Assembly: GCA_934254715.1 (NCBI GenBank)
Contig: CAKQLT010000002.1
Location: forward strand, 928-64,927
Direction: 5' to 3'
From: an uncultured Clostridia bacterium
GTDB lineage: Bacteria > Bacillota > Clostridia > Christensenellales > CAG-917
Length of the DNA stretch: 64,000 bases
Below, piece by piece: positions 3,717 to 63,605 of this stretch. Position numbers and translations under genes: made by a program. Below the pieces are notes generated by a model. The model was not told where the DNA came from and searched no databases. It saw nothing but the letters and a program-made list of their open reading frames with translations. Position 1 is the stretch's first letter, and the number at the start of each line of letters is the position of its first letter.

Positions 3717-3717
3717 A

Positions 3718-8579: not shown

Positions 8580-8582
8580 ACT

Positions 8583-13258: not shown

Positions 13259-13277
13259 ATATGCAAATGAATCGCAA

Positions 13278-13685
13278 ATGTTATCGAGGCACGATTTGAA
13301 AGATTATACGACAAAACAGAGAAAACTCATATTGAATGCACTCGCTAACAGTGATTCTATGACTGCAGAGGACATATTTGTCGCATTGAAAAACGACGGC
13401 GTAAGCATAAGCACCGTATATAGAAATCTCGACAAACTTGTTCAAAGCAACCGTGTTGTGCGTGAATTGTCAAAAGACGGCAGCAAGTCGTTGTATCGAC
13501 TGAACAAAACCGCTTTTTGTTCGGGGCATTTGCATCTGGTATGTAGCAACTGCGGCTGTGTAATTCACGTCAGCGACAACGATACAAGCAAACTCGGCGA
13601 ATCCGTTATGAGTAAATACGGATTTTCGATAGACGAGCAAAGTTCTTTTATAACGGGACTTTGCCAAAAATGCAAGAACTTATAA
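13278..13685 (+). CDS. zur: Fur-family metalloregulator, probably zinc uptake regulator
   Basis: The winged-helix segment is QRKLILNALANSDSMTAEDIFVALKNDGVSISTVYRNLDKL. Two CxxC pairs are present (CSNCGC...CQKC). The gene lies directly upstream of znuACB. The start is uncertain: ATG 13278 was chosen because the longer ORF would cover the promoter. Confidence 0.8.
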   Translation: MLSRHDLKDYTTKQRKLILNALANSDSMTAEDIFVALKNDGVSISTVYRNLDKLVQSNRVVRELSKDGSKSLYRLNKTAFCSGHLHLVCSNCGCVIHVSDNDTSKLGESVMSKYGFSIDEQSSFITGLCQKCKNL

Positions 13686-13700
13686 AAAGAGGGCAAACAA

Positions 13701-13997
13701 ATGTTGCGTAAACGCAAGGTATTAATAATCGCTTTGGTCGCGTTTTTTATCGTGGCGTTTTTGTTTGCGTCTTTGTTTTCTCAAATAGAGCACGACCACG
13801 ATTGCACCGGCGACGATTGCCCTATATGTGCGGTGTTGCACTTCGTGCAAGATTTTTTGTCGAGCATCAAACGTCCCGATAATTTAATTGCGTTGTTTAT
13901 TCTTTTTGTCGCGGCTACATTTGCATTGCCTGAAAACGGACAACGCACAAGCAGTGCTGTGACCCCTGTTTCTTTGAACGACGTATTGACATTTTAA
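13701..13997 (+). CDS. Small membrane protein with an HDHDCTGDDCPICAVLH metal-binding-like motif
   Basis: The RBS is AGAGGG. There are two hydrophobic helices with the Cys/His cluster between them. The gene sits between zur and znuA. Confidence 0.6.
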   Translation: MLRKRKVLIIALVAFFIVAFLFASLFSQIEHDHDCTGDDCPICAVLHFVQDFLSSIKRPDNLIALFILFVAATFALPENGQRTSSAVTPVSLNDVLTF

Positions 13998-14122
13998 TAT
14001 AATCTTTAGCAAGGCATAACCGATGTCATCGGTTGTTTTGACGTGCGGAAATTCTCTGAAAAGAGAAGGTTCTGTGTGTTTGCCTTGTATTTTTTTATAA
14101 AAAAATTGAAGGAGATGTAAAT

Positions 14123-15148: not shown

Positions 15149-15158
15149 GAGGCGAATT

Positions 15159-15869
15159 ATGGCTGAACTCGTATGCCAAAACCTTTCTGTCGGATATGAC
15201 GGAAAATCGGTGGCGGAAAGTATCGATTTAACAATAGAAAAAGGCGATTATCTTTTTGTCGTCGGTGAAAACGGCGCAGGTAAAAGCACGTTTATGAAGA
15301 CGCTTTTAGGATTGCTTAAACCCGTTTCGGGCAATGTCGTTTTTGACGGCGTGAAGCAAAAAGAAATAGGTTATGTGCCGCAACAAACGAGCGCACAAAA
15401 GGATTTTCCCGCTTCTGTTTATGAAATCGTGCTTTCCGGTTGCCTGTCGGGATGCGGGTTCAGACCGTTTTATTCCAAAGCGCAAAAGGATTCCGCTCGC
15501 AAAAATATGGAATTGCTCGGAATATCCGATTTGGCAAAAAAGTGCTATCGAGAACTGTCGGGCGGGCAGCAACAAAGAGTTCTTCTTGCTCGCGCTTTAT
15601 GCGCTGCAAATAAGATGCTTCTTCTTGACGAACCCGTTGCGGGACTCGACCCTATCGCAACGCAGGATTTGTATGGCATCGTAAGAAAATTGAATGAGGA
15701 AAACGGTATGACGATTATAATGATTTCTCACGATATTTCGGCTGCGTTAAAGAATGCAAAGCACGTTCTTTATGTCGGCAAGCCTTGCTATTATGCTGCG
15801 ACGGACGAATTCAAAAACAGTGATTTTTGCAAGAATGCAATCGAGGATTCAGGTTATGGACGCATTTGA
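15159..15869 (+). CDS. znuC: Zinc ABC transporter ATP-binding protein
   Basis: Walker A (GENGAGKST), the ABC signature (LSGGQQQRV) and Walker B (LLLDEP) are present. The gene lies between znuA and znuB. Confidence 0.9.
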   Translation: MAELVCQNLSVGYDGKSVAESIDLTIEKGDYLFVVGENGAGKSTFMKTLLGLLKPVSGNVVFDGVKQKEIGYVPQQTSAQKDFPASVYEIVLSGCLSGCGFRPFYSKAQKDSARKNMELLGISDLAKKCYRELSGGQQQRVLLARALCAANKMLLLDEPVAGLDPIATQDLYGIVRKLNEENGMTIIMISHDISAALKNAKHVLYVGKPCYYAATDEFKNSDFCKNAIEDSGYGRI

Positions 15870-45400: not shown

Positions 45401-48400
45401 GACGCGGCAATAAGCTGTATCGGCGGTATCGTGGGCGATATGGGCAGCGGCGCAAACTTCGCTTCCGGCTCGGACGTCACCGTCCGCGGTACGATTTCCA
45501 TTCCGCTTGCGGCGGCAAACGTCGGCGGCGTTGCGGGTCGTACGAACACCGCTACGTTCATAGGCAAGTTCGACGTCAGCCCGAATATGAGCACCGCTAA
45601 CACCGAAAACGTCGGCGGCTTCATCGGCAAGAATATCGGCACTGTATATATCCTCGCCGACAACACCGACAAACTCGTCGACGGCAACCTTAAAGGCACG
45701 CAAATTTCAATCGGCGGCACAATCGTCGGCACGAACGAAGTTGGCGGCTTTATCGGCGTAAACAACTCGCAAAGCACCCTCAATATCGGCTCTAACGTCG
45801 CAAACGCAAAGCCGTATAGGTCGGGTACGCTCAACATCACGATTTCCGCAACCGTTACGGGTTCGGGCGAGAACGTCGGCGGTATCGTCGGCAAGAACGA
45901 GGGCGCAAGTTCTCTCGGCGCAACCGACTACGCAACCGTGGACATCGTAAAGGGCGTTATTCTGCAAAAGGGCGACATAGAAGGTCAAAAATACGTCGGC
46001 GGCATTATCGGTCTCAACCAAGGCTTGCTCACGACGGGCGGCGGCGAGGCAGACACCGCGATTGGCGGCGCAACGCTCTCGAACGCGCAAATAAATTCAA
46101 TCAAAAATCTTTCCATAACCAACGAAGGCAACGTCAAGGGCGGCGCATTGAACGGCACGGCCTACGAAAACGGCGACTACGTGGGCGGCGTTATCGGTTT
46201 GCTCGATTCGCCCGACACGCTCAAAGTCACCGACGAGGGCAAGGGCGCAATCGCGGGTACGTTCACCAACGGCGGCAAGGTCGAGGGCGGCAGATTCGTC
46301 GGCGGCTCGATAGGCTTCGTCGGCAAAAACGTCACGATTACCGCAAAAGATACCGACACGCTGTTCGTCAACAGCGGCGAGGTTACGGCGCACGGCTACT
46401 TCGCAGGCGGTTCTATCGGCGCGCTCGTTGGCACAATCGAGGGCGTAAGCACCGAATATATGGTCAACTTCGAGAACGAAGGCAACGTCAACGCGACAGG
46501 TTTCGTTGGCGGCTCTATCGGCGTGCTTGCAGGTCCGGTTAAATTCGCGCAATTCGTCAACAAATCGAACGGCTTGACGATGGAAGCGGTCAACGCGGTC
46601 GGCGGCTCGGTCGGCTACATCGGCTTGTCTTCTACGCTCAAAACCGTGCTCGATACGCTCGGAATCACGCTTGAAAGCGATTACGTTCAAATCGTCAACA
46701 CGCACTTCGAGGCAAAAGGCAATCTCACCGTCAACGCAAATCAAACCGCAATAGACGAAGCAAAAGGCAACGCTTCCGACTCGTCTACGGGTTGGGGTGG
46801 CGTAGGCGGCGCAATCGGCGTTATCGGCGCAAGCGTTGCAAAGTGGGGTTCGAGCGATAAGGAAAGAAACACCTACTACGCAAACGGCAACGTCGTTGCG
46901 AGCGGCATAAACAACGTCGGCGGTATCGTCGGTTTGGTCAACGCAAACGACATCACCATAAGCAATATGCTCGCGTACGGCACGACCGTCAAGGGCGGCG
47001 CAAACGTCGGCGGTATCGTCGGCGCAACGACGGGCGCAGGCACGGTTATCAAGTCGGCATACGCGGTCGAGGGTACGTTTGAAGGCTCGGAAATGGTGGG
47101 CGGCATTATCGGTCGCACCAAGTCCGACACCGACGCGAAATCTTCCTACTGGGTCAAAGGCTATCCCAACGCAACCCTCGCGGGTACGGACGTAGGCAAA
47201 CTGCAAACGGACCTCGGCAAGTTTGAAACCATAGTCGAGTACGTCGGCAGTCAACCCGTCGTGTTCACAGAAGAATTCTGCACGATGTACACGCCAAAGA
47301 CCTATTACGACGACTACACCGGCACGCATAAATACGACGGAAAGACCATAACCGCCGTAACCGACGCCAATATGACGTGGGAACAATACTTCGCCTCGAG
47401 CCTCGGCATTGCAAACGCGGAAAAGAAGAACGGCGCGTGGGTCAAACCCATTGCGGGCGCAAAGTCGTACACGACGGGCGCAAGCGACACGGGCTGGTAC
47501 TTCGTTTACGCAACCGATACCACGATAGGCACTATCAGCGCGGAACATTCCGTCAACGCAAACGAATCCTACTGGAAACGCATTGCCGACGCGTACACCG
47601 CAAGCGAGCGCGAAGCGGGCGACGATACGAAGGCTCTCACCGCTTCCGAAATAGTTTTGGGCGATAACGGTCAACCTCAAAAATCCACGCTTTACGCAAC
47701 CGCGACTTCCGCGGGCGAAAACAGCGGATATTATCTGTATATGGCAACGTCGGGCAACTCTCGTCCGAGCGCAACGTATTCGGACGGCTTGTTCTTTATC
47801 AAAACCCTCACCGCAAACGAAGACGCGCTCGCGGAAAACGTCGCCGTGTACTATCGCACCATTTCGAGAGGCAAATCTCTCACTTACAACGGCTACGCGC
47901 GTTTCGCGCCCGTCGGAATCACCGCTTCGGAAGGCGACGAAGTTCCGTTCGTCGAAAATCCGACGACGGGTACGCCCGACACGTACTGCTATTCGTCGGA
48001 TACGTCGGCGGACAGCACGAAGACCGACCCCAACGAAGCGGGCAAGCCTTACAAGTCCAAAGTCAAGATTTACTACTTTGACAGCGAAGGCACGCCTCAC
48101 GTAGTCGGCGGCGTAGAAATCGATTGGGAAATCAAAAAGCGCGATCTCGAAGCCTCGTTCTCGGACAGCGGCGAGAGAGTTTACGGCGTTGACAGAGCAG
48201 AGTCTAGCGACGGCACGGCCAAACACGACGTTACGCTTAAAATATCAAATATCGCGCCGAACAAAGGCTCTGATTTGAGTTTGATAATAACGATTAGGGA
48301 CAAAGACAACAACGCAACTACGTTTACACTCAGCAAAAATTCTATGACGCCCGAAGCAATAAACGGCATATCCATTGTCGGCGCAGGTATAACCAACTTG

Positions 48401-51400
48401 TGCGAAAACAAGTGGGATGTAAACGATTCGCTGTACAACGTCACAGAGCCGAGTGAAAAACAAACCTACGAGTTCTCTTGTGCTATCGACTTCCAGAACG
48501 CAAAGGAATACACCATAGAAATTTCGCTTTCGAACGCTTCGACTGCGCTGTACAATCTTACGGGCGATACGACCAAAGGATTCAACGTTAAACCTGCAAC
48601 GTTGACGATAAGCGGCAACGGAACGGATTCCGTTATGTTTGACAACAAAACGCACGGTTACGGTTGGACTATATCGGGACTTGTCAATAAAGCGGGATAT
48701 AGTGACACTATAGCGGTGCTTGCGGCGTTCTCGCCTAAGGCTTGCGCAAAACTCGAAGGCGAAACGAATCCGTATGAAGTCGATTTATATTCCAGTTCCA
48801 CAGCGTTGAAAACAGGAAATATAGCACTCGACTCATTGGCAGGCGTGTCGCTCACAATAAACGGAAATCCGCCTTCAATCGACCTCACGGGTGCAAAGAA
48901 AGCCGGTTCGTATTATCTTACCTTCGCAACGCTTACGGCAGGAAACTATACGCTCAATCTCGAAGGCAGTACGACTGCGAAACAGTCGAAGAAACTTGCA
49001 ATCTCAACCAATTCGCTAACGTTTGAATGGCAAGGTGCAGGTGGAAGCCACACTTACGATAAAGAAACGACTGGCGTTATAACGTTGACGATAAAAGCGG
49101 CAAAAGAAATCAGCGATTTTGCAAACTTTGTGAACAAGTATTTCACAATGTCTATGTCCGGTACGGGTAGCACTGTCAGTGCCGTCACGTCTTCAAACAA
49201 TACGACTGCAACCGTTAAGTTTACGACGGGCGTAAATGCATTGAAGTATTATCAGGCAAAAGTCACGTTGAATAAAAACGAAACCGACTTTATCGAAGAT
49301 AACAAGGGCAGTTGTTCATATCCGTCCGCGCTTTCAAACGGCGGTTCTATAATAAAGAATTACGAGATACTTCGTCGCTCGTTGTCGTTTGAGTTCTCGA
49401 CGAGCAACGGCACGTATAATGCGCAAAATCAAGGCTGGAACGGCGTTAGAACAAAAGCAAAAGCAAACGACGGAACGGGGCTTATAAGCGGTGACAGCGT
49501 AAAAGTCGGTATTGTTATTACGAGAAACGATTCTGCTTTCAAATCTGCGGCGAACATATCCGTGTCTACGTCGTATGTCACAGGCGGCTTGTCAACAATC
49601 GCGTGGGGTAATTATGTCGTAACGGTAACGCTCGATGAAAGCCAAAGCAAAAACTATACGGTTTCAAGCAGCGCGACGACAACGGCTTCGTGGAAAATCA
49701 ATAAGTATTCGTTGTCGCTTAAAGGTCTTGAAGGCGGGAAAAAGACTTATGACGGTACGGCTGTCACGCCAAAACTTTCAATCAACAATCAAGATATAAC
49801 TGACGGCAAGTATAATTATTACGGTGACGCGATTTCAATCACGTATTCAGTGCTCGATGCTGAAAACAAATCGCACGATTCGCTTGTAAACGTAGGTGTA
49901 TATAACATTTCAATAGGTGGAAGCGGAAGCAATGCGATTTCCGTTATTCCCAAACAGCGTGACGGTATCGATACAGCCGACAATTATGCTATAGATTCGT
50001 CGGAAAGCGGATCTACGACTTACACGATAGAACCCAGACAAATCAAACTCACTTGGCAAGAAATCGCGTCCTTCGTGTTCAGCAATGCGGCGCAAGGCTT
50101 GATAGTCACGGGCGTTGAGGGTATCGACGGCAACGGAAGCCTCGCAATCGTAAACGGTTCGAGCACGATAGACGGCGTGAATATCAAGGGATATGCAGGA
50201 AACGACGTCATCGAAATCACCATATCTGGCGCGGCAACTCACGTTGCGGACGGCAAGAAGTTTATGACTGCGGTCATAAGCAAAGTGACGGGAACGAATG
50301 CCGACGGCTCGGATTCCAATTTCAAAAACTACGAAATCGTCGAAGGTATAACGAGCGGCGAGTTCGAGATAACGCCGTCCGTCGTGTCCGTGCGCTTTAC
50401 GGCTACGAACGCAACGCTCGAAAAGGTGTACGACGGCAACAACAGAGTGACGGCACAAATTCTCGACAGTTACTTCACGTTGAGCGCAACGGGACACGTT
50501 CCTACGAAATTCCCGTTCACAATCAGCGGAACGTACGACGACGAAAACGTGCTTTACGATTCGAGCAACAACGTTATAAGAGGCAAAGAGGTCACGTTCT
50601 CGTATACGTTTGCCGACCCGACGAACGTCGGCGACTACGCTTTGGGAAGCGTCGATACGGCGGCGTACAACGTCGGAAAGATTACGCCGAAACACATTCA
50701 AGTTTTCCTCGACAAACTGCGCTCTAACAAGGCGACGAGGACGTACACTGACGATACGACCTACGGCGGCAGCGGCGTAAGCGGCAACGGCACGACGAAA
50801 CCATATCGCGCGGGCGAAGGCTTCAGAGTAAGCGGCGTTTTGACGGGCGACGTAGTGACCGTCTTCGCAAATTACGCCGAATCCGACAACTTGCGCAACA
50901 CCTCTACGAACGGCGGCTTCGACTTTGCAAAATACGTCAACGACGTATACAAAGACTCGGACGGCACGTTCAAGAAAGCAACTTCGGGTTCGTATCTCAA
51001 GAAACTCGTGTTCGAGATGAACGGCGCGGACGCAGGCAACTATACGTTCAACGTATATCATTCGAGCGACGGCGCATACAGCGATACGGACGGCAACTTT
51101 GCGACTAAAGTCACCGTGTACGACAGCAGAGAAAGCGACCAAAACCGCAAGAATAAGAGCGGCTCGCCGCAAATCCAAATCGAAATAACCGTCAAATCCG
51201 TCAAAGTGGAATACTCGAACACCGCTCAAAGTTACGCCAACGACGACAACACCTACAACACCGACTGGGCGCGCGTCGAGGGTACCAACAAGGAAACGGA
51301 CAAGGCGGGCGCGGACATCATCGTCACCAACGGCTGGATGTACGATGACGGCAAAGACCGCCCGATAGATTCCACCGACAAAAAGAGAGAATACCACGGC

Positions 51401-53215
51401 TACACGGTCATTCAGGGTAGGTCGGGCAATTCCCGACTCGGTGCGTCCGTGTCTACGACCAACGGTATGAATCTCAACTATCGTTTGAGCAATCAGCCGA
51501 CTCTTACCATCGCGTACTTCGTGTCCACAGAGAGCAACGAATACAAGATAACTTCGCTTGCGCGTTTGCTCATTGCGTCCTTCTACTACACGGCGCATCA
51601 GAACCCGCAAAACCTCGATATGATCAAGATCGTATCGTCGGGTTACGCGTGGGTCAAGGTCGTTAGCGTGGGCGAGGACGGCGCATACGTCGGCGATTAC
51701 AAGAAGCCCGACAATTCGCCTATCAAGGATTCTACCGCAACCACTTGGGACGAGTATCTTGCAGAATTGCAAGCGGCGGATTACGCGGTGTTCTTCGACA
51801 CCGAAAAGAACGAATGGGGCTACTATAGTTCCAACGAATCCACGCAAAACGACATTCCGTTGAAGTTCGTGCAAACGAAAGACATAACGGGTACGTTCAC
51901 GGCGCAAGACGTCGAAATACTCAACGCGTTCTTCACGACCTCGTCCGTAGACGACAACGGCAACGTTACGCAAAAGCAGTATAACTGGAACGGAACTAAC
52001 AAGGACTTCCTCACGAACGTACTCAAAGCGAGAGTGGGCGCAAACGTGACGATAGACGGCAGTCTGTTCGTATCGACGGCAACGTCGAAAGTGAACGGAA
52101 GCGACGTGTTGACGGGCTTTGACGGCACTTACGACGGCAACGGCTACGTCATCGAATATCTCAATATTATGGGCTACGGCAAAGCAAACGTCGGCTTGTT
52201 CGACGTGATAGGCGAAAGCGGTATCGTAAAGAACGTGCATTTGAGAAACGTCACTATCAACGCAAATCAAGGCAACGTAGGCGCAATCGCCGGTAGCGTT
52301 TACGAATCGAAAACCACCGAAACGAGCGTAAAGAACGTGTCCGTACACGGCGCAATCAACGCAAGCGGCGGCACGGTGGGCGGTCTGTTCGGCACGAGCG
52401 CGAGAGATATTGAAAACGCAATCGTTCTCGGCACGATAACCTCTCAAAACGCAACCGTCGGCGGCGTTGTCGGCACGACGAGCGCAAGCGTAAAGAACGT
52501 CGTTTCCCTTGTGCAAATCACCGCATACGGCGGCACGACAAAAGCGTTTACGACTTCGGGCGCAACGATTGAAGATTCCTATCATATGACTAACGCCGTA
52601 TGGCAAAAGGGAAGCGGATTCGACAACGTTTCGGGCAAGTCCAAGACGTTCAACGAGTTGATGTCGGGTTCTGTTTCGGGTTACGGCACGCAAAACAAGT
52701 ATTACTACACGGGTACGGTCGCGCCGACCAAAGGCGAGTTTGACGTTCTCGACGACGTGCAGATTACCGAACTTTCGGCAATAGGCTCGCAAAACGAAGA
52801 AAACGAAAAGCAGAGTATGCGCCTCAAAGATGTAGTTTCCGTATATCTAATGATGTATTCTTTGTCAAAGACGACGGGAACGCTCACGAGCGACGGCAAG
52901 AGTTTCAACGTAAACGCATACGCGATTAGTTCGTCGAGTTGGCTCGTAGGCACGGCGGACGGCACGCAAAGCAATCCGATTGCAATCGCAAACAAGCAAA
53001 ACGTATCGCTTTTAAGACAACTTCCGTTTGCGACGTTCACGCTCAAGACCAATATCGCGCTCGACATTGCAAGCACGTTTGCAGGCGCGTTCTTCGGAAC
53101 GGTTACGAGCGCGACGGATAGCGCGGGCAATTCGTTCGGATACAAGATAACTTGCGACAAGGATATGTTCGAGGCGTACGCCGAAAGCAATCCGAGTTGG
53201 ATAGAAGTCGCATAA
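33470..53215 (+). CDS. Giant (6,581 aa) secreted GLUG-repeat/beta-helix adhesin-like surface protein
   Basis: This is one uninterrupted ORF. I chose the ATG at 33470, 5 nt after GGAGAG, giving the N-terminus MRSTRIGQTKLKKCMKLTASGLLLAVMFVLVFAGTLSGAFG (a Sec signal). It contains three Listeria-Bacteroides (Flg_new) repeats and dozens of GLUG-type motifs (YVGGVVGYA, NVGGIVG, FVGGSIG). These sit in at least five modules, each opening with a G-x-x-x-NPY-x-I cap. A discoidin-like insert and many Y-x-G/YDG (MBG-like) Ig-type repeats are also present. There is no LPXTG, SLH or C-terminal TM segment. Confidence 0.9.
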   Translation: MRSTRIGQTKLKKCMKLTASGLLLAVMFVLVFAGTLSGAFGIENIANAAVSKSYGSSDSMATTHTIPISASNWTLEAVSSTQNAARVYGLGGDFTDSYSNNDSYNKAFRIRPVTFAANENIADPTANKVGGSTTKGGTSYGTSLKYDSVGINAMSGDDNCGTAVFNLYTTIQVPQSITSFSFDALMWAGMDAYKASSWGSGTPSHNTSFNLAVYAGDGVRSGTALCNTSSYSISSSNSSKNSVETKTDGSISKSDIDISNVAISNGTKSITIVLQMSAYKADTGGYYDMSTHMLLVYNMRISYKGHYQVAFNGNGSTKGSMSNQVLTYGAGDSLNLNQFERAGYKFTGWNDQIDANGNGIGNSFADGATITEDFTKTPSTSSANGIVAKTLYAQWTPLFGLIYHQNASSGDTTTVYYNIEGGSQITLYTADDFAATGALSGFAKSGYYFAGWADSADSQTPLPSTITAGANGQTRDIYAIWKPIEYTIYFDKNNTSASGTVDNISGYGGSAIASLPYGYHMQDGFFTGWTLNATGSGTFYKKGEGISATALNALLTNAQNKKIDTASVSLRLYAQWVTNIEFGKDSGHLDEKWGSQSNPYVIRNVTQLNNLAKIVNAKCSASASGVVGSIVGSSYAYATNPLASANGGYANCYFRLDVDITNMSGFTTPIGTNTAVFSGFFDGNNKTLSGIDIDKAGSYVGLFGYTSGATIQNLTISGSVKGSKYVGGVVGYALNTTIYNVTNNATVTARYSVDNDAGGSIIQYDGGNQTNEGFDKVFDGTDKKFCGTQSGMSFVADLGSSLAISGFAIKNANDTASNTNRRPKTIQIWGSDESTNHGNKNDKGNAGASPTSKGYTNWNLVFSLDTNNFSSTNYERVEFAFDGNKTYKYRYYWVYIISAGGIIQFSEFDFLAAGEDVGGVVGYASGTSGNGTVISNVKNNASVTGSNYTGGLVGRASGIFAITDSSNAGGIMGFDGVAGVLGAMTNNANVTITSCQNSGTVSSSPESNGVAGIIGRTESASNRLVVQGCKNTAVITGDRNVGGIGGRIETTRNAKGSLVFANCYNDGSIAATAYGTVGGIAGYFFANGTSIADVATISYCFSSGAVSSNSTASDKNIGGIVGNPRASTLTSTRVYNCYTTNTTYAISGTANATIDNTNYVIASGASAPSTTNGGKYLVYNSAFTFKPAIISGSTYTPYNSWTAIAEYVNATVNGEVVRVFNDINGFMVSGNVAPSSSQYFLSRKGVSSSEYLTPSKVENGNPTNAADRSNTATFTVTAWYGANTNSNIQCTISTVTINDSKNNIYNGQQQGFARSEVSNPNANNSVYGVVFDYLLTSPSEHFVKTFAFDSNGNQIESGSNPYQVGAYNTTVFVKIGDVIVGKRVNRVFEIAQETINVAWEWTDGKQSTLFSRIGTGDGVQFVYNKAEQGLGSVTFAYNKNSFYTAAEYMFTASGNLKYMNASGNAYSRTYTLNDTRNFKIHSTNTNADLSGTTVTFEWIIRRNKLTIENRWVRADFGKDSTIYTFEYNAAHQGLLATDGITYIVENDTAGKSHEIYSWVLYIDNHANTINVGKYTRSIYVNDQTNYVIAYTNSYVGNGIAKLSGNKGVSVNDTQSSVTYSWQILAYNILDNFNSDSSKTKVWFGGIAGDNGLIVGNQLTSVISGATRDGNSVNVAYYPLQSASSGVQQVLVYGQSRYDEAKFVIYVQYNDGTIAQLFGNEYTLSNLDAPTKENPTPINTSVTASGQGNFAGDLSKYYTVLYSDFGWKSGKNPNSANWGAADNPYVIDRPEYLLRLSQIVNGKDKAWNSIANTSYCYAPQSTATAQNATYKGAYFLVTANIDMSDYVSKDGLTNFLPVGDGSANGERPFSAIFDGGNNEIKYIYNIGYFVNKANPSGEEKYDYVGLFGYIDGATVKNLTVTSERSISFTVGDVTYKGGVNGRDYVGGIVGKAVDSTLEEVVLRYGDCVYGNDYVGGVVGFAQNTTIANSEKIFNASVSGRFYVGGVAGEWQVYDKSQLGLNNQQSLTPIDSSSVSGAKYVGGLVGWLDLSNCSGSVTFTPQYDNGTSKTLEVKGTEYVGALFGTLVGNGYRQTANSTGLTSIVIESSKVGNVTLKPVTYSDGNSTYLPKVVGGLVGFIESAALVFGTSWNTDNITFDFNKTSTSFLGGVVGVMSKNSTIEMFVLIKNDGSQLTSVDGKITANTQFGHAGSPSSSNYNAGSFVGGIVGYVSSQAGSFWREGTTIFGNAVQFENTANVYATGFAGGIFGALGNIALSKIEQSVGAVYDEISVAQNQDNRTNILQKILVGGVREGLSVTTLGIAPTTDSDYVSGANGKLRNTASVQVTKSNGVGGEYVGGIVGYSGANVRLVLRNKPQTGDIDVSALNVYSGGANVAIAGSYAGGIAGFTDNLEHELQYIVVQAKFTDSNATRVGGLIGEMTSGAINGCVVVSAMAAGERISFDTDNFQGTEYVGGLVGKTENATIKDSIATGFNLQSTSITKGGVLGGGTNPTIEASWTFYIANEGATYSTISANEYGKYILVDKDTITSNGSSYPSFEKLCAFAGIANTLQNGVVGILEFALNVPSATYNANWGGAQLAFYDASGSDKITTNFGATENNSVGAIKDFVNVNNVVTVKLDMETGTSMQVCIVPIEFVNVKKWTTSNDLYASTNSRKWQLNIENSYKQPSSSSRYVVYVTNNNEGTLSSNKERLYDDDGNVRYIQASVFYNWQDKDGNEFYVLIGNGDNSNFVGSYDKELTPGSKGNPFTISNQKEWNDFAHSVYSGTSYSGQYVKLLTDEIVIDNSAHYGTASSTKKLDFGTAVTSTPANGTAAGSNIGYNFAGDISKDSNEHNFQGVFDGNGHYITVNYNSGGYHRVSVFPNAANAEFRNLTIKGSIMAASQMTGADGIANSAAYDIAAFVAKPFGSLEFYNCTNEADIIGLRNVAGIVGYNSGGHGIKLEACVNTGNITSLQGMYTVSGGFKDTYKYNDNLADTGVGVNNISFTFGTGGIIGSYVGTITIESCRNAGEIIGGNNVGGIIGRHEGSSSSTATLTINNCANTGNVLSNSGYWGEDEGGVEGANSEGVRQHVFGYAGGLVGITGQHSILRMYASYNTGDVTTYSNIVGGLVGGVGALYQPSGKNTVKTGGRSIIAYCYNTGTIKAGGTFPKTTQAYGGGRENFGGTVSGGFVGIAGDIQISQGYNAGDVWNYGHISYQFSWQVRAGGIVGQSEPVTESGHTGYVLFDNLYNVGTIFVRPIDYEIIFGYTVKNNLRYGAAISGYCDVSDKSDRIKASDCYSINNCISSRCAVLNGKEYSYYKNGQNSWNPEFRDQWYQNSGVGGIGETKVNLLETGRVYNTYDSLTAAMDENSKLRMTGSNFAFDQSTTALTLNYGSVGNYTSIKEQIIGADASISDNAVSNLSTIGWKKFPDSWLYVYGCLPQLSMFALDTQNGLSMRSVGYGKDDYGVYNDEGVAAGSEQYPYIIKDGVDLMGMQALVDAGLSFEGKYIEIANGSNNLEGIASTRIELATYDGTNTAAVNDDSNTMYKAVDQNGDYKVGKSYHLLLQGAIFNKAYNQGQNPTYVGTDYAYWAWNTYYYNGETLSNVWESGSPNPNKWDSYGSMRHYGVFSLQNFIPMGRGNSVFKGNFSGKQANGEMTYIDNVRISTGKYNNSSNVTCGSEYGGLFSKVENAYIGYIAIGGNSKILSFAKENDISATGGIVGLSLGSSVIDNCGVSDSATIGAYGVSKTNQYVENESIANNKKYAKDTYAGGIVGLADTKHGNSYSAGITAIIRNCNVSTTGNIESAKDYIGGILGYVEGSSNAEGKGNSVRIENCNVQNAVIQAADSATTSSYIGGVFGFGSQYVSAFVTGCSVGVGGKVTIKGEHSLGGIAGGMSNAQGGYIDSCTVGGGTSITRIDQGGDKQVVESANHGTAIGGLVGFTQNSTDTVSPLTTTFSGTSSFAGTITVGVAATNQSADSDAAISCIGGIVGDMGSGANFASGSDVTVRGTISIPLAAANVGGVAGRTNTATFIGKFDVSPNMSTANTENVGGFIGKNIGTVYILADNTDKLVDGNLKGTQISIGGTIVGTNEVGGFIGVNNSQSTLNIGSNVANAKPYRSGTLNITISATVTGSGENVGGIVGKNEGASSLGATDYATVDIVKGVILQKGDIEGQKYVGGIIGLNQGLLTTGGGEADTAIGGATLSNAQINSIKNLSITNEGNVKGGALNGTAYENGDYVGGVIGLLDSPDTLKVTDEGKGAIAGTFTNGGKVEGGRFVGGSIGFVGKNVTITAKDTDTLFVNSGEVTAHGYFAGGSIGALVGTIEGVSTEYMVNFENEGNVNATGFVGGSIGVLAGPVKFAQFVNKSNGLTMEAVNAVGGSVGYIGLSSTLKTVLDTLGITLESDYVQIVNTHFEAKGNLTVNANQTAIDEAKGNASDSSTGWGGVGGAIGVIGASVAKWGSSDKERNTYYANGNVVASGINNVGGIVGLVNANDITISNMLAYGTTVKGGANVGGIVGATTGAGTVIKSAYAVEGTFEGSEMVGGIIGRTKSDTDAKSSYWVKGYPNATLAGTDVGKLQTDLGKFETIVEYVGSQPVVFTEEFCTMYTPKTYYDDYTGTHKYDGKTITAVTDANMTWEQYFASSLGIANAEKKNGAWVKPIAGAKSYTTGASDTGWYFVYATDTTIGTISAEHSVNANESYWKRIADAYTASEREAGDDTKALTASEIVLGDNGQPQKSTLYATATSAGENSGYYLYMATSGNSRPSATYSDGLFFIKTLTANEDALAENVAVYYRTISRGKSLTYNGYARFAPVGITASEGDEVPFVENPTTGTPDTYCYSSDTSADSTKTDPNEAGKPYKSKVKIYYFDSEGTPHVVGGVEIDWEIKKRDLEASFSDSGERVYGVDRAESSDGTAKHDVTLKISNIAPNKGSDLSLIITIRDKDNNATTFTLSKNSMTPEAINGISIVGAGITNLCENKWDVNDSLYNVTEPSEKQTYEFSCAIDFQNAKEYTIEISLSNASTALYNLTGDTTKGFNVKPATLTISGNGTDSVMFDNKTHGYGWTISGLVNKAGYSDTIAVLAAFSPKACAKLEGETNPYEVDLYSSSTALKTGNIALDSLAGVSLTINGNPPSIDLTGAKKAGSYYLTFATLTAGNYTLNLEGSTTAKQSKKLAISTNSLTFEWQGAGGSHTYDKETTGVITLTIKAAKEISDFANFVNKYFTMSMSGTGSTVSAVTSSNNTTATVKFTTGVNALKYYQAKVTLNKNETDFIEDNKGSCSYPSALSNGGSIIKNYEILRRSLSFEFSTSNGTYNAQNQGWNGVRTKAKANDGTGLISGDSVKVGIVITRNDSAFKSAANISVSTSYVTGGLSTIAWGNYVVTVTLDESQSKNYTVSSSATTTASWKINKYSLSLKGLEGGKKTYDGTAVTPKLSINNQDITDGKYNYYGDAISITYSVLDAENKSHDSLVNVGVYNISIGGSGSNAISVIPKQRDGIDTADNYAIDSSESGSTTYTIEPRQIKLTWQEIASFVFSNAAQGLIVTGVEGIDGNGSLAIVNGSSTIDGVNIKGYAGNDVIEITISGAATHVADGKKFMTAVISKVTGTNADGSDSNFKNYEIVEGITSGEFEITPSVVSVRFTATNATLEKVYDGNNRVTAQILDSYFTLSATGHVPTKFPFTISGTYDDENVLYDSSNNVIRGKEVTFSYTFADPTNVGDYALGSVDTAAYNVGKITPKHIQVFLDKLRSNKATRTYTDDTTYGGSGVSGNGTTKPYRAGEGFRVSGVLTGDVVTVFANYAESDNLRNTSTNGGFDFAKYVNDVYKDSDGTFKKATSGSYLKKLVFEMNGADAGNYTFNVYHSSDGAYSDTDGNFATKVTVYDSRESDQNRKNKSGSPQIQIEITVKSVKVEYSNTAQSYANDDNTYNTDWARVEGTNKETDKAGADIIVTNGWMYDDGKDRPIDSTDKKREYHGYTVIQGRSGNSRLGASVSTTNGMNLNYRLSNQPTLTIAYFVSTESNEYKITSLARLLIASFYYTAHQNPQNLDMIKIVSSGYAWVKVVSVGEDGAYVGDYKKPDNSPIKDSTATTWDEYLAELQAADYAVFFDTEKNEWGYYSSNESTQNDIPLKFVQTKDITGTFTAQDVEILNAFFTTSSVDDNGNVTQKQYNWNGTNKDFLTNVLKARVGANVTIDGSLFVSTATSKVNGSDVLTGFDGTYDGNGYVIEYLNIMGYGKANVGLFDVIGESGIVKNVHLRNVTINANQGNVGAIAGSVYESKTTETSVKNVSVHGAINASGGTVGGLFGTSARDIENAIVLGTITSQNATVGGVVGTTSASVKNVVSLVQITAYGGTTKAFTTSGATIEDSYHMTNAVWQKGSGFDNVSGKSKTFNELMSGSVSGYGTQNKYYYTGTVAPTKGEFDVLDDVQITELSAIGSQNEENEKQSMRLKDVVSVYLMMYSLSKTTGTLTSDGKSFNVNAYAISSSSWLVGTADGTQSNPIAIANKQNVSLLRQLPFATFTLKTNIALDIASTFAGAFFGTVTSATDSAGNSFGYKITCDKDMFEAYAESNPSWIEVA
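34388..35197 (+). other. Three Listeria-Bacteroides (Flg_new) repeats within the giant protein
   Basis: The repeats read YQVAFNGNGSTKGSM...AGYKFTGWND...LYAQW, then IYHQNASSGD...SGYYFAGWAD...IYAIW, then YTIYFDKNNTSASG...DGFFTGWTL...LYAQW. Confidence 0.7.
35750..36199 (+). other. Discoidin/F5-8 type C-like (CBM32-like) domain inserted in the first GLUG module
   Basis: The segment reads IIQYDGGNQTNEGFDKVFDGTDKKFCG...FAIKNAND...RPKTIQIWGS...YRYYWVYII...IIQFSEFDF. Confidence 0.5.
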
Positions 53216-53234
53216 TCGCAACGCAAATCGCAAT

Positions 53235-53257
53235 CGGACGGCAAAAAAAGCCGTCCG
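53235..53257 (+). other. Stem-loop after the giant gene (no U-tract)
   Basis: The sequence is CGGACGGC-AAAAAAA-GCCGTCCG. It is not a canonical terminator, so read-through into the next genes is possible. Confidence 0.4.
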
Positions 53258-53476
53258 TGAGCGAGAAAAACGAGCGAAAAAAAGCAATTCGCTCGAAAAT
53301 CCGAAGAATTGCGAAAATATCACAAAATCGTGATTCTAACCGCACGTTTTCAAAAAGTTGAAATATCGTGCAAAAAAAATCGACGAAAAATCAAATAAAA
53401 CACCTTGCTCGATTGTAGTTTATATATAAATATATAAAAATCCGCAAGGCACGAGCAAAAGAAACAAGGATAAACT

Positions 53477-54559
53477 ATGCAAGCAAGCAAAAGCAAAAAC
53501 TTCAAAATCGTAATGTCAGTTATGATTCCGCTTTTGATAATCGTGACCACCGTCGTTATGGTGGGCGCGTCTTTTGCGTGGTTTTCCAACGCCGACAAAG
53601 TCACCGTTGCTGAAATAACGATGTCTACGGCGGATTCTTACAGAATCGATTTTACTCGTCAGCCTTTGTCCACCGACGGTAAGTTGCTGTTTGACAATAT
53701 GCAGTACGTCGGACAGACCGCATTTTGCGCAAGCGGCGCAAACGCGGGCAAACTTATGACCAAAGCGGTTGCGGCGGGCAACGCCGTTGACACGAGCGAC
53801 CGCGCGTATTATTTCATCAACACGGTTGCGCTCGACACGCAAGGCAAGACGTTCGATATGAGTATGGCGTTCGACGGCGTGAAGATAGTGAAGTACAAGC
53901 GCAACGCCGACGGCTCGATTACCAAAGACGAAAACGAGGAAAACGTCGTTGAAAAAACCAACAAAATCTACGCCGCTACGGGTTCTAACGTATCGCCGGT
54001 GAGCGACATTCCGTTCGCGTTCACGTGGTTTTTCAAAGTGCACGACGAAACCGCGGACGGCGTCGTAAGAAACTATCAGACCTACGACATCGACGAGGAA
54101 ATGCAAGGACAACGACTCTTGCAACTCGAACCGCAAAAGAACGAGGTTTGGTACACGCCGTACGGCAAACTCACGTTCGGCGACGACAATCTCGTTGCGC
54201 GCGTAAACGACGACGATTCAATCGACGCCGCGAGCATAAAGGACGTTGACAAGCGCGTTATCAACGACTTCGGCACGAACGGCATAGGCAACGCCACGTC
54301 GCAATTATTCGATTTCTATATCGTTTTCGCGCCCGAAAAACTGTTCTGGATGCAGTTTTTCAAGAGCGATAGGGACAAATACACCGCAAACGATATTTAC
54401 AAAACCACGACGGACGGCGTAACGACGGATTACACCAAAAAGATTTTTGAGGAATTGTCCAATCAGATGTACTATTCGCATATGGATTATTCGGGTTCTA
54501 CGTTTGAATTTTCGGCGGTACTCAACGTAACGAACGTACACGAGGAGGCGCAAGGATAA
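53477..54559 (+). CDS. Secreted protein with a SipW/TasA-class signal peptide (TasA/camelysin-like), gene 1 of 3
   Basis: The RBS is AAGGA. The N-terminus is MQASKSKNFKIVMSVMIPLLIIVTTVVMVGASFAWFSNADKV. The C-terminal strand STFEFSAVLNV resembles the TasA-family end. Confidence 0.75.
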   Translation: MQASKSKNFKIVMSVMIPLLIIVTTVVMVGASFAWFSNADKVTVAEITMSTADSYRIDFTRQPLSTDGKLLFDNMQYVGQTAFCASGANAGKLMTKAVAAGNAVDTSDRAYYFINTVALDTQGKTFDMSMAFDGVKIVKYKRNADGSITKDENEENVVEKTNKIYAATGSNVSPVSDIPFAFTWFFKVHDETADGVVRNYQTYDIDEEMQGQRLLQLEPQKNEVWYTPYGKLTFGDDNLVARVNDDDSIDAASIKDVDKRVINDFGTNGIGNATSQLFDFYIVFAPEKLFWMQFFKSDRDKYTANDIYKTTTDGVTTDYTKKIFEELSNQMYYSHMDYSGSTFEFSAVLNVTNVHEEAQG

Positions 54560-55362
54560 TGAACAAGACCAAACGCACTCTAATCGTATCGTCCGTAGTT
54601 ATGGCACTCATATTCGTCGTCACGATAGTCAGCGTGACCGCCGCGTGGTTTACTAACGTTGCGGACAGCAACGAGGACGGATTCACCACCGATTCCGCGC
54701 TTTTGCAAGAGAGCGCAAGCATATCCATCGACGAGAACGCCGCAAGCGACTACGGCACTTCGGTTTGGCCCGCCGTGGCAACGCCGGGATACCTTTCAAA
54801 AGGCAACGCCGCGCCGTACGGTACGGATTTGAAGCAGAAGCAGACGAGCAAAATCGACGTCGCGGCAAAATGCGCCGTGCTGTATTTTCCGATAACGTTC
54901 GTCGGCTCGTCGGACGCGGGGTATAGCGACGGAAGAAAATCGCTTATGCTCAGCGTGCTTTCGGCTCACCTCGACAACGACGCCGAAAATAAAGATTATC
55001 TTTCCGATTTCAACGTCGAAATGGAACTCGTCACCTTAAAAGAGGACGGTGAGTCCAAAACCAGCGAAACCATAATGCCGACTGCGCCGAGCGATTTTTC
55101 GGGCAATCCGAGCGCGATATATTACAATCAACCGTTCAAAGACGCCGAACGTAAATTGCCGAGTTACAAACTCTATATGCTCGTAATCCCCGGCGAAACC
55201 TACTATGTCAAAGCAACCATTTATTTCAATCGTATCGACGAGGAATGTAGCGAGAAACTTATTTACCTCGCCAATACGCAAAAGAATATCACGTTCCAGT
55301 TTGAAATCAAGGACAACGTTGCGCAAGGCGTGAATATCAGAGAAGGGAATATGCCCGTATGA
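54559..55362 (+). CDS. Secreted protein with a SipW/TasA-class signal peptide (TasA/camelysin-like), gene 2 of 3
   Basis: The RBS is GAGGAGG and the junction is a TAATG overlap. The N-terminus is MNKTKRTLIVSSVVMALIFVVTIVSVTAAWFTNVADS. The C-terminus is ITFQFEIKDNVAQ. Confidence 0.75.
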   Translation: MNKTKRTLIVSSVVMALIFVVTIVSVTAAWFTNVADSNEDGFTTDSALLQESASISIDENAASDYGTSVWPAVATPGYLSKGNAAPYGTDLKQKQTSKIDVAAKCAVLYFPITFVGSSDAGYSDGRKSLMLSVLSAHLDNDAENKDYLSDFNVEMELVTLKEDGESKTSETIMPTAPSDFSGNPSAIYYNQPFKDAERKLPSYKLYMLVIPGETYYVKATIYFNRIDEECSEKLIYLANTQKNITFQFEIKDNVAQGVNIREGNMPV

Positions 55363-56042
55363 CGTCACTTCGCAAAAACAAAATCGCGATGATAGTCGCA
55401 ATAATAGTGCTTTTTGCAGTCGCAGTTTCGGCGATGGGCGTTTCCTATGCCGTTTGGATTTCCCCCGACGGTCCGATAGGCGGCGGCTCGTCCAAAGCGT
55501 CCCCGTCCGTTACGCCCGACTCGAACAACGTCTGGGCAAAGTATTTCAATTATAAGGAAATAACGGTCGAGGGGTTGGACGGCAAATACGTCGAAATATC
55601 CACGTTCTACACCGACGGCGAAAACGCACAAGGACTCAATTTGTCCGATTTGTATATTCCCGAGGTCATTTGGGTGGAAAAGGGCAGCGGCAAAGTGCTT
55701 GCAACGCTGGACGGCGTAAGCGAAAACGCGTACGAAACCTACAATGTTTACCGCATTACCAACAGCATATTCGCGGATTCGTCCCTCAAAAGTTTGCCCG
55801 TAACTATCCATATTCCTGCAAGCGTATGCGAAATCGACGCCGCCGCTTTTGCAGGTCTGCCCAATCTTCAATCCGTGTATTTTGAAAACAGAATGCCGTG
55901 TACGTTAGGGGCGTATGCGTTTGCAGGTTGCTCAAATCTCGAATACGTCTACGACGTCAGAAACGGCGGCGTAACGCCCGACGACACCTCTTTCGTCGGC
56001 ACAAAAATCACCGTCACCGACGGTCAAATTCAGTTTGCGTAA
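55359..56042 (+). CDS. BspA-type leucine-rich-repeat protein with a similar N-terminal signal/anchor, gene 3 of 3
   Basis: The junction is an ATGA overlap. The N-terminus is MTSLRKNKIAMIVAIIVLFAVAVSAMGVSYAVWISPDG. The LRR_5-like segment reads IPASVCEIDAAAFAGLPNLQSVYFEN...LGAYAFAGCSNLEYVY. Confidence 0.75.
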   Translation: MTSLRKNKIAMIVAIIVLFAVAVSAMGVSYAVWISPDGPIGGGSSKASPSVTPDSNNVWAKYFNYKEITVEGLDGKYVEISTFYTDGENAQGLNLSDLYIPEVIWVEKGSGKVLATLDGVSENAYETYNVYRITNSIFADSSLKSLPVTIHIPASVCEIDAAAFAGLPNLQSVYFENRMPCTLGAYAFAGCSNLEYVYDVRNGGVTPDDTSFVGTKITVTDGQIQFA

Positions 56043-56092: not shown

Positions 56093-56121
56093 TTGACACA
56101 ATCGCAAACTCTTGCTATACT
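56093..56121 (+). promoter_or_regulatory. Sigma-A promoter upstream of the tRNA pair
   Basis: TTGACA (56093-56098), a 17-nt spacer, then TATACT (56116-56121), about 155 nt upstream of tRNA-Ser. Confidence 0.55.
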
Positions 56122-56276: not shown

Positions 56277-56365
56277 GGAAGCGTATCGAAGCGGTCATAA
56301 CGAGGCGGTCTTGAAAACCGTTTGGGTGCAAGCCCACGGGGGTTCGAATCCCTCCGCTTCCGCCA
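56277..56365 (+). tRNA. tRNA-Ser (anticodon UGA), CCA encoded
   Basis: The acceptor stem is GGAAGCG/CGCTTCC and the D-stem has 3 bp. The anticodon stem-loop is GCGGT-CTTGAAA-ACCGT. There is a long variable arm (TGGG..CCCA). The T-arm is GGGGG-TTCGAAT-CCCTC, with discriminator G plus CCA. Confidence 0.93.
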
Positions 56366-56372: not shown

Positions 56373-56448
56373 GCTGATGTGGCTCAGGTGGTAGAGCACA
56401 TCCTTGGTAAGGATGAGGTCACCAGTTCAAGTCTGGTCATCAGCTCCA
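56373..56448 (+). tRNA. tRNA-Thr (anticodon GGU), CCA encoded
   Basis: The acceptor stem is GCTGATG/CATCAGC and the D-arm is GCTC-AGGTGGTA-GAGC. The anticodon stem-loop is CATCC-TTGGTAA-GGATG. The T-arm is ACCAG-TTCAAGT-CTGGT, followed by T plus CCA. Confidence 0.93.
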
Positions 56449-56450
56449 AA

Positions 56451-56481
56451 TCCGTGAACGAAATTCGTTCACGGATTTTTT
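56451..56481 (+). terminator. Intrinsic terminator after the tRNA pair
   Basis: TCCGTGAACGAAATTCGTTCACGGA is followed by TTTTTT. Confidence 0.8.
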
Positions 56482-62565: not shown

Positions 62566-63045
62566 ATGAAAAACACCGCTTGGGAAAACTTGTTTAAGAA
62601 ATACTACAACGAGGCTCTCTTGTACGTGTTTTCGTTCTGCCGCAATCGCACGCTTGCCGAGGACATCGTGCAAGAAGCGTATATGCGCGCAATCCGCTCT
62701 ATCGACGAGGAAAAAGACGGCTTTAAGTTCTGGCTGTTCAAGGTGTGCCGCAATCTCTACTTCGATATGCTCAGAAAAAACAAGAGAATCGAAGCGATAG
62801 AAGGCGACGTGCAATCGGACGATTCGCTTGTGGACGACGTGATTCAAAAGGACGAATATCGCGCGCTCTACAAGGCAATATCGCTCTTGAAAGACGGTTA
62901 TCGCGAGGTCGTGCGGCTCTATTATTTCGACTCGATGTCCGTCAAGGAAATAGCGTCAATCGTCGGCGAATCTACGGATAACGTGAAGATTCAACTGTAT
63001 AGAGCGAGGCTCAAACTCAAAGAAATTTTGGAGGCAAACATATGA
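62566..63045 (+). CDS. ECF-type RNA polymerase sigma factor
   Basis: The RBS is GAGGGA. Region 2 reads AEDIVQEAYMRAI...FKFWLFKVCRNLYFDMLRK. Region 4 reads VVRLYYFDSMSVKEIASIVGESTDNVKIQLYRARLKLK. Confidence 0.88.
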   Translation: MKNTAWENLFKKYYNEALLYVFSFCRNRTLAEDIVQEAYMRAIRSIDEEKDGFKFWLFKVCRNLYFDMLRKNKRIEAIEGDVQSDDSLVDDVIQKDEYRALYKAISLLKDGYREVVRLYYFDSMSVKEIASIVGESTDNVKIQLYRARLKLKEILEANI

Positions 63046-63605
63046 ATTTTGACGAAGCGTTCAAACACTATCGGGACGGTGTCGCCACCGAAGAAGAAAA
63101 ACAATTCGTAAAAGAGCAACTCGCAAAAGCCAACGAGTTTTTGCAAAACGAGTCCGTGCGCGAGGAATCGCCGGTTAAGGAAGCGGACGCGGAAGACGTG
63201 AAAAAAGCCAAAAAGAAATTCAAATGGCAATATATCGTCATTCCGTTCTGCTCGCTCGTATGCGCGCTTGCGGTCATTGCCGCAATTTTGGGCGGCGTGT
63301 TCGGCTCGGCGGCGTCGTACGCCAAAAAGTCGGCAGTGTATTCAAAATCCGCTTGTATCGACATCGCAAAGACAAAAGCGTTTGAGTTCGTCAGCGATTC
63401 CAACAACTTCACGTACGTCAACGTGGCAAGCAAAGACGACTTCAAAACCGAAGACGTGGACGCGGACTTCAACTACAACGGCAAAGATTTGAAAAGCAGT
63501 TATTACACGTATATCATCGAACTCGAAGTCAAGCGCAGCGATTTTGAAATCAAAATCGAGGTTGATACGAGAAACGGCGATTGCAAGGTTATAAAAATCG
63601 ATTGA
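63042..63605 (+). CDS. Single-pass membrane protein co-transcribed with the ECF sigma (putative anti-sigma factor)
   Basis: A 4-nt overlap joins it to the sigma gene. It has a short cytoplasmic N-terminus, one TM helix (YIVIPFCSLVCALAVIAAILGGVFG) and an extracytoplasmic C-terminal domain. Confidence 0.6.
   Translation: MNFDEAFKHYRDGVATEEEKQFVKEQLAKANEFLQNESVREESPVKEADAEDVKKAKKKFKWQYIVIPFCSLVCALAVIAAILGGVFGSAASYAKKSAVYSKSACIDIAKTKAFEFVSDSNNFTYVNVASKDDFKTEDVDADFNYNGKDLKSSYYTYIIELEVKRSDFEIKIEVDTRNGDCKVIKID

Follow-up and report, generated by a model that had tools for sequence, protein, structure and literature searches.

A conserved gene cassette joins a giant surface protein to three exported proteins of unannotated families in uncultured gut Clostridia

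The donor strand of TasA is formed by the first 11 residues of the mature protein, directly after the SipW cleavage site, and the N-terminus of TapA resembles this strand and has been proposed to prime assembly (PMC9674648). The Clostridium perfringens operon sipW-bsaA-bsaB-bsaC codes for a vWA protein and two remote homologues of TasA; BsaA subunits polymerise by exchanging donor strands, which come from a disordered stretch at the N-terminus (PMC11580942). Here we analyse a stretch of 64,000 nucleotides (the window; contig CAKQLT010000002.1, positions 928 to 64,927, forward strand) from an uncultured Clostridia bacterium, in which three small genes, g1, g2 and g3, follow the gene of a giant surface protein. 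We read the giant gene and g1-g2-g3 as a single functional cassette that is conserved in uncultured gut Clostridia. Among known components, those of the TasA/TapA and Bsa systems most resemble it.

The genes of the cassette are arranged as follows:

33470-53215, plus strand: giant surface protein, 6,581 amino acids from the ATG at 33470; an alternative TTG start lies at 33404
53477-54559, plus strand: g1, exported protein of 360 amino acids; N-terminal module at residues 1-59 and predicted beta-rich domain at ~73-356
54559-55362, plus strand: g2, exported protein of 267 amino acids, its ATG overlapping the g1 stop; predicted beta-sandwich at ~55-251
55359-56042, plus strand: g3, exported protein of 227 amino acids, its ATG overlapping the g2 stop; the LRR_5 protein, third gene of the trio
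55743-55952, plus strand: LRR_5 (PF13306) of g3, residues 129-198; 31.9 bits against a Pfam gathering cut-off of 27.7, E 1.4e-7

The listing of open reading frames (ORFs) and the reading of the DNA agree on this arrangement. The giant ORF and g1 are separated by 261 nt (53216-53476), g1 and g2 overlap in TAATG (54557-54561), and g2 and g3 overlap in ATGA (55359-55362), as a first-pass annotation of the window had described. That annotation had also called g3 a BspA-type leucine-rich repeat (LRR) protein, and the LRR_5 match bears this out; the LRR domain is preceded by the N-terminal module, a Ser/Gly/Pro-rich linker and a conserved WAKYF motif. The C-terminal strings reported for the first two proteins, STFEFSAVLNV and ITFQFEIKDNVAQ, are both present. 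A single hydrophobic segment is present in each of the four proteins, always N-terminal, and those of the trio are ~21-23 residues long. The g1, g2 and g3 proteins are Sec-exported. Apart from LRR_5 in g3, nothing in Pfam or NCBIfam matched the three window proteins.

All three proteins belong to unannotated families and are not the relative-less orphans that they had been taken for. The g1 family comprises 160 relatives in 90%-identity clusters and 79 clusters at 50% identity, with no Pfam domain in the shared part, and g2 matched 276 proteins at E <= 0.001. Where source names exist for the relatives, they read "hypothetical protein [Clostridiales bacterium]". One distant g1-family member, P0306 (L011:105-941), ends in a type I dockerin (E 1.6e-6), a domain that would imply an extracellular, cohesin-bound location in that organism.

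The cassette is kept far beyond local synteny, and the co-occurrence of trio homologues with giants in related genomes, proposed in the first-pass annotation as a check, is indeed observed. A scan with a 35-sequence g1 alignment, one genome per GTDB species, yielded 33 loci, all in metagenome-assembled genomes. The locus labels are mostly Christensenella sp., Clostridiales and Clostridia, with a few from other genera, and include one complete 1.65-Mb chromosome. Altogether 48 loci were compared, with flanks of up to 10 kb per side, and 40 of them have upstream sequence. An ORF ends immediately before g1 in all 40; it is complete in one locus only (L044) and in the other 39 stays open beyond the 5' end of the locus DNA (up to ~3,300 codons). 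Wherever downstream sequence suffices, g1 is followed by a second ORF with the AWF motif and by a third ORF with an A-x-W motif, except in L048, where the third gene is LRR_5. Eight loci, among them L003, L005-L007, L044, L047 and L048, have an LRR_5 record of varying strength for the third gene. The flanking genes vary from locus to locus. In the 17 loci tested, the giant 5' of g1 is orthologous to the window giant and colinear with it to the C-terminus, at 30-74% identity.

Three observations lift this linkage above inherited synteny: divergent members, gene overlap and a mini-giant. The divergent members L045, L047 and L048 were found only by profile search (E 3e-4 to 2e-29) and have the same gene order. 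Their giants are 11,686 (L045), 5,533 (L047) and at least 4,293 (L048) amino acids long, and their flanks hold uvrC/hprK/murB/whiA (L047), flavin adenine dinucleotide (FAD) oxidoreductases (L045) and EamA/MFS (L048). The stop codon of the giant overlaps the start of g1 in L040, L045 and L047 and lies within ~16 nt of it in L041, L042 and L048. These genes must be transcribed as one.

In L044 (contig CANPWB010000013.1), the ORF directly before the trio is complete and encodes only 594 amino acids (L044:8112-9896). This mini-giant is homologous only to a C-terminal part of the window giant (blastp, 34% identity over 496 columns, E 1e-51), which defines the following feature:

51836-53173, plus strand: C-terminal module of the giant, residues 6123-6568; the sole part kept in the L044 mini-giant

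With the partner thus reduced to the C-terminal module, the trio tracks that module and not the size of the giant. The mini-giant also carries an N-terminal hydrophobic segment and a weak Peptidase_M26_N match. Tail motifs of the form LLRxxxFATFxL...F.G.F.G have similar counterparts at the giant ends in L046 and L047.

Two of the loci deserve separate mention. In L045 (ENA ERZ1029115 k87_67497715, 1-15599), the g1-like protein has 530 amino acids with Flg_new repeats, and its start is the one overlapped by the 11,686-residue giant. Two further motif-bearing proteins follow, and then an extra protein of 859 amino acids with Flg_new and LRR_5, the N-terminus of which resembles a lipoprotein signal (LVGC). 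In L043 (CP091723.1, a complete long-read metagenome-assembled genome; 9956-11031), the g1 orthologue is split into two ORFs, one of 252 codons and the remainder, which points to a pseudogene with a frameshift or else to an indel error in the long reads.

The only matches in the window giant are to Flg_new and GLUG. It had been described as having no anchor of its own, and we find none: no LPXTG-like motif occurs in the last 80 residues of the giant, g1, g2 or g3, and no C-terminal hydrophobic segment is present. The trio and giant were also considered as sortase substrates; this was rejected, as they hold no LPXTG-like motif and no sortase domain occurs among the scanned window ORFs. Long antisense ORFs (to 960 amino acids) within the giant gene, for example at 49910-52792 (minus strand), are composition artefacts and not genes.

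The three proteins of the trio share an N-terminal module. Directly after the hydrophobic segment, each presents a short motif, as the first-pass annotation had noticed:

53570-53590, plus strand: g1 motif S-F-A-W-F-S-N, residues 32-38; putative cleavage after A34; A34 and W35 invariant in 63 representatives
54637-54657, plus strand: g2 motif T-A-A-W-F-T-N, residues 27-33; putative cleavage after A29; A28, A29, W30 and F31 invariant in 32 sequences
55443-55463, plus strand: g3 motif S-Y-A-V-W-I-S, residues 29-35; putative cleavage after A31; A31 and W33 invariant in 23 orthologues

The motifs are invariant or nearly so among orthologues at 27-45% identity, which is more than chance. A six-frame search of the 64 kb, with a pattern that excludes the g3 variant, returned g1, g2 and one antisense chance match. 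The module begins with a basic tip and a hydrophobic core of ~20 residues and continues with the site (S/T)-x-A↓(W/V/I)-(F/W)-(S/T) and a conserved strand-forming stretch. The g1 and g2 families are homologous over this module only, that is, over the signal and ~25 residues (hhalign E 5.8e-6, probability 85%). The view of g1 and g2 as full-length paralogues was rejected, with only the first ~56 columns aligning. In each of the three families, the N-terminus is conserved best. The mean column identity of g2 is 0.86 in the signal and 0.57 in the rest; in the TasA family (40 bona fide proteins), the values are 0.86 and 0.51. TasA signals being equally conserved, strong N-terminal conservation need not mean a permanent membrane anchor.

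The motif class is plausibly SipW-type, as the first-pass annotation had proposed. TIGR04088, the model of the SipW-type signal, is the commonest NCBIfam match in the g1 relatives (10 of 63 at E <= 1), with distant members matching it at the motif, and no other class of N-terminal signal was reported by NCBIfam among these 63. P0291 passes the curated cut-off of 19 bits with 20.4, and P0293 and P0306 reach 15.4 and 14.4. The link of TIGR04088 to the window proteins thus runs through family homology and is not a direct match. Mature TasA starts at A28, at the site TWA↓AFND (the sequence is identical, residue for residue, with PDB 8AUR). In the same register, the predicted sites are SFA↓WFSN in g1, TAA↓WFTN in g2 and SYA↓VWIS in g3, all with an aromatic P2' residue. 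The trio shares with TasA a small-x-Ala sequence at the end of the core and an aromatic P2' followed by S/T/N-D/N. An aromatic P2' occurs in none of 143 verified LepB substrates and impairs cleavage by P-type LepB, and TasA is processed by the endoplasmic reticulum (ER)-type SipW (PMC10269814). The correspondence of the sites with TasA is specific but circumstantial. A home-made hidden Markov model of TasA N-termini, run against all window and locus ORFs, gave as its two best matches members of the g1 family, at E 0.05 and 0.18, which is too weak to count.

Type IV pilin or prepilin-type (class III) signals were considered and rejected: neither the trio nor its relatives match TIGR02532 or another NCBIfam prepilin model, and the motif G[FMLIV][TS][LI][IVL]E is absent from the first 60 residues of the trio and giant. 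At the start of the giant (33470-33640), the signal region ends in ...AGTLSGAFGIENIANA, and the L044 mini-giant has ...FLFFADIKVG. Both may carry a faint echo of the A-F-N-D-I-K site of TasA.

The predicted folds of g1 and g2 differ. The AlphaFold model of g1 (predicted local distance difference test score, pLDDT, 76; core 85-95) shows a large beta-rich domain, with residues 1-53 at low confidence. A Foldseek search of PDB with this model gave no significant match (best E 0.17), and the weak ones are generic jelly rolls and lectins. The model of g2 (pLDDT 70) has a helix at residues 4-26, an unpacked stretch at 27-51 and a beta-sandwich at 55-251. Its PDB matches are weak even at the top of the list (Microviridae spike proteins, E 7e-4, and CorA copper protein). 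Among 350,542 PDB chains, TasA (5of1_B) ranks 7 (E 0.045, probability 0.38, template modelling score 0.23-0.30), and the archaeal TasA homologue AbpA (7ueg_A) ranks 10 (E 0.062). Aligned with 40 PF12389 proteins by hhalign, g2 residues 143-261 pair with TasA 99-241 over 117 columns (E 0.0073, probability 5%), including DYLSxFNVEMxLV with (D/E)FLxQFxV and the last two strands; in greedy mode, the alignment is colinear over 218 columns (E 0.08). The same comparison aligns g1 in the signal region and N-terminus only (E 0.047). PDB sequence-profile searches with the g1 and g2 alignments found no TasA and gave chance matches only (EZH2, E 0.68; nanobody, E 0.05). In fold, the likeness to the TasA family put forward in the first-pass annotation shows only in g2, and weakly: its predicted beta-sandwich has TasA and AbpA among its ten best matches, neither of them significant. 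In g1, no such likeness is seen. The chances are about even that g2 belongs, as a very divergent member, to the wider BsaA/TasA superfamily. According to its model, g1 is a different, novel fold with the same front end as g2. Conservation extends over the 20-25 residues that follow the putative cleavage site; they are common to g1 and g2 and, in both monomer models, unpacked with pLDDT < 50, which is compatible with a donor strand.

The SipW/TasA interpretation of the first-pass annotation thus has partial support. We tentatively favour a reading that stays somewhat short of probable, namely that g1-g2-g3 are a divergent donor-strand module, like TasA, TapA and BsaA, that engages the C-terminal domain of the giant. 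It is favoured because the trio follows the same logic as the Tas and Bsa systems: three exported proteins with unrelated globular parts and one shared N-terminal stretch, which here has alternating hydrophobic residues, together with a domain for protein interaction (LRR) on the third protein. The shared module would work like the SipW-dependent signal and N-terminal donor strand of TasA, TapA and BsaA. Cleavage after the alanine would fall to a signal peptidase able to accept an aromatic P2', probably an ER-type enzyme whose gene lies at some other place in the genome. The new N-termini (WFSN..., WFTN... and VWIS...) would insert as donor strands into the beta-sandwich of the neighbouring subunit. 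The TasA-like sandwich of g2, the larger novel beta domain of g1 and g3 as LRR adaptor or adhesin would join into a short fibre or stalk. This assembly would act with the C-terminal ~450-residue module of the giant, in its retention on the cell or in its display. A more specific form of the same idea, a sortase-independent display on a monoderm cell in which a polymerised TasA/TapA-like stalk or anchor captures the C-terminus of a beta-helical giant of 5,000-12,000 residues, seems to us improbable.

Several results weigh against donor-strand assembly. TIGR04088 does not match g1, g2 or g3 of the window even at E <= 10, nor any of 32 g2 and 23 g3 relatives at E <= 1, and a single one of the 63 g1 relatives exceeds its cut-off. 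PF12389 (Peptidase_M73) matches neither the three window proteins at E <= 10 nor ten distant g1 relatives, and no locus showed a match to it. This failure is weak evidence against kinship with TasA, because the M73/camelysin entry takes in only 632 of the 2,172 proteins of the BsaA/TasA family (PMC11580942). TasA is absent from the 50 matches listed for the g1 model, and the structural and profile similarities to TasA are all below significance. As the first-pass annotation had stated, the window holds no signal peptidase gene that we could find: a Pfam scan of 33 window ORFs gave no S24/S26 domain, and a search by regular expression only found no SGSMEP-type or GDSMxPT-type signal peptidase motif in six frames of the window or of the 48 loci with their flanks. 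In addition, the hydrophobic segments of ~21-23 residues are long enough to be uncleaved membrane anchors. On that alternative, the main rival of donor-strand assembly, bitopic g1, g2 and g3 would form a platform at the membrane-wall interface that holds, folds or guides the giant via its C-terminal module, with no fibre and no dedicated peptidase. The single long segment of each protein is the most conserved part in g2 and is modelled there as the helix at residues 4-26; the missing TIGR04088 matches of the window proteins and the want of a nearby peptidase gene in any locus by motif search suit such a platform, and the conserved cassette fits it equally well. However, in each of the three families the segment ends precisely in a conserved (S/T)-x-A site, distant g1 relatives match the model of a cleaved SipW-type signal, bona fide cleaved TasA signals are as conserved as those of g2, and the dockerin of P0306 suggests a released extracellular protein. 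We regard permanent anchoring as rather unlikely.

If the signals are cleaved, the trio need not polymerise. The proteins may be ordinary secreted helpers, processed by the housekeeping signal peptidase and serving as a soluble or wall-associated stabiliser, cap or LRR co-adhesin of the giant, with AWF as the first strand of the fold. The lack of significant TasA similarity agrees with this, and many surface proteins contain beta-sandwich or LRR domains. The archaeal ABP operon likewise has no dedicated signal peptidase (PMC9245690), but in archaea the housekeeping enzyme is itself ER-type. Against it, an aromatic P2' in all three proteins is disfavoured for P-type peptidases (PMC10269814), the occurrence of the same module on three otherwise unrelated folds argues for a function of its own and not for the first strand of a single fold, and the module is unpacked in both monomer models. 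We consider secreted helpers distinctly unlikely. Finally, the adjacency could reflect nothing but inherited gene order in one lineage, and closer relatives do share a wider synteny (GDPD, GH3 and hexapeptide acetyltransferase). The cassette is nevertheless kept where the flanks wholly differ (L045, L047 and L048), the giant stop overlaps or abuts the g1 start in several loci, and the L044 mini-giant retains just the C-terminal module, so that the absence of any functional link is very hard to credit.

The spacer between the giant and the trio holds conserved elements:

53216-53476, plus strand: intergenic region with two hairpins and a near-invariant block; AAGGA stands 8 nt before the ATG

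A hairpin without a U-tract had been reported here; it lies at 53235-53257 (CGGACGGC-A7-GCCGTCCG) and is conserved in relatives. A second hairpin lies at 53271-53295, and the fold z-score of the spacer is -5.25 against shuffled controls. In an alignment with five relatives, an AT-rich block at ~53325-53465 (TTGTAGTTTATATATAAATATATAAAAA) is nearly invariant, although the giants are only 65-74% identical. The block is probably a promoter, operator or leader/5' untranslated region for the trio. A scan of the spacer for sigma-70 consensus promoters called no site, and an Rfam scan of the intergenic region found no family, two downstream tRNAs being the sole matches. Given that the block points to a structured leader or an internal promoter in this clade, the trio need not be co-transcribed with the giant here; in clades with overlapping genes, co-transcription is forced.

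At 56093-56121, downstream of the cassette, stands a near-consensus promoter-like sequence (TTGACA-17-TATACT plus an upstream TG; 11 of 12). It is followed by tRNA-Ser(TGA) at 56277-56365 and tRNA-Thr(GGT) at 56373-56448, and the sequence at 56448-56478 forms a strong hairpin that is terminator-like. A Pfam sweep of 30 further window ORFs found rhamnose catabolism, a zinc ABC transporter, SpoIIE, TilS, a copper ATPase, GDPD, GH3, AraC and an extracytoplasmic function (ECF) sigma factor, and no sortase or signal peptidase domain. The ECF-type sigma factor (62566-63045) is overlapped by 4 nt by a 187-residue protein with a central hydrophobic segment (62566-63605 for both), and the two, ~6.5 kb downstream of the cassette, are likely a sigma/anti-sigma pair.

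Few genes of uncultured gut bacteria are as poorly understood as those of giant surface proteins, and the cassette addresses how a protein of 6,000-12,000 residues without LPXTG or C-terminal anchor stays on a monoderm cell. Being compact and deeply conserved, the four genes provide a concrete set of partners and narrow the relevant part of the giant to its last ~450 residues. If the TasA/TapA-like reading is true, fibres built by donor-strand exchange would serve not only as biofilm matrix scaffolds but also in the display of adhesins, and three unannotated families would join the BsaA/TasA world. If display on a stalk is true, it would be a general solution for retaining anchorless giant adhesins in uncultured gut Clostridia. 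If the segments are membrane anchors, the cassette would still be a new accessory complex for giant adhesins.

We found no paper on this cassette or its protein families in the literature searched. The first-pass annotation knew of no described pairing of this kind, and this stands for the literature searched, with the qualification that a related operon, sipW-bsaA-bsaB-bsaC, is known (PMC11580942). What is new is the fixed coupling to the C-terminal module of the giant, the novel fold of g1, the LRR third subunit and the lack of any linked peptidase that we could find.

Other ways of displaying large adhesins share less with the cassette. Sortase-assembled Gram-positive pili and LPXTG adhesins also serve surface display on monoderm cells, with several small subunits and an adhesin; in contrast, the giant and trio carry no LPXTG-like motif, and the scanned window ORFs encode no sortase domain. 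Salmonella SiiE with its type I secretion system (PMC6272769) and Lap-type systems likewise combine a very large repetitive surface protein with a small fixed set of accessory genes for its placement or retention. These systems are diderm and include ATP-binding cassette (ABC) transporters, membrane-fusion and outer-membrane proteins or a periplasmic protease, whereas the cassette has no ATPase, transporter or protease and consists, besides the giant, of three small exported proteins only.

Pyrobaculum calidifontis AbpA/AbpB (7UEG; PMC9245690) pairs a jelly-roll pilin of the TasA superfamily with a second, larger beta-sandwich protein, for which a role in filament nucleation or anchoring is proposed. 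Its operon also has no dedicated signal peptidase, and AbpA is the match at rank 10 for g2. The system differs in being archaeal and in having no LRR protein and no giant partner, and the similarity of AbpA to g2 is not significant (E 0.062).

The C. perfringens bsa operon (PMC11580942, PMC7395162) has a dedicated sipW, whereas none is found in the cassette, and no giant partner is present in C. perfringens. An N-E-K isopeptide triad locks the subunits of BsaA together; in the present motif, the asparagine varies with aspartate. The likenesses, taken from the published description, are that both systems belong to Clostridia and comprise three exported proteins, with two remote TasA-like subunits in C. 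perfringens and, in both systems, a third protein that has a protein-interaction domain (vWA there, LRR_5 here). Disordered N-terminal donor-strand exchange is proposed for BsaA as well, and most members of the wider BsaA/TasA family fall outside the M73/camelysin entry.

In comparison with B. subtilis tapA-sipW-tasA (5OF1, 8AUR), no sipW is found in the cassette or its flanks, PF12389 does not match, and the window proteins fail TIGR04088. The g1 fold is larger and different, the third protein is an LRR protein, and the coupling to a giant gene has no Bacillus counterpart. Yet both encode small exported proteins in one operon with a beta-sandwich, predicted here, and with a strongly conserved signal that ends in (S/T)-aromatic-A and is followed by an aromatic P2' and S/T/N-D/N. 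The profile and fold similarity of g2 to TasA is weak and colinear. In both, the first residues of the mature proteins, putative here, are common to the proteins of the operon, and in TasA these residues are the donor strand (PMC9674648).

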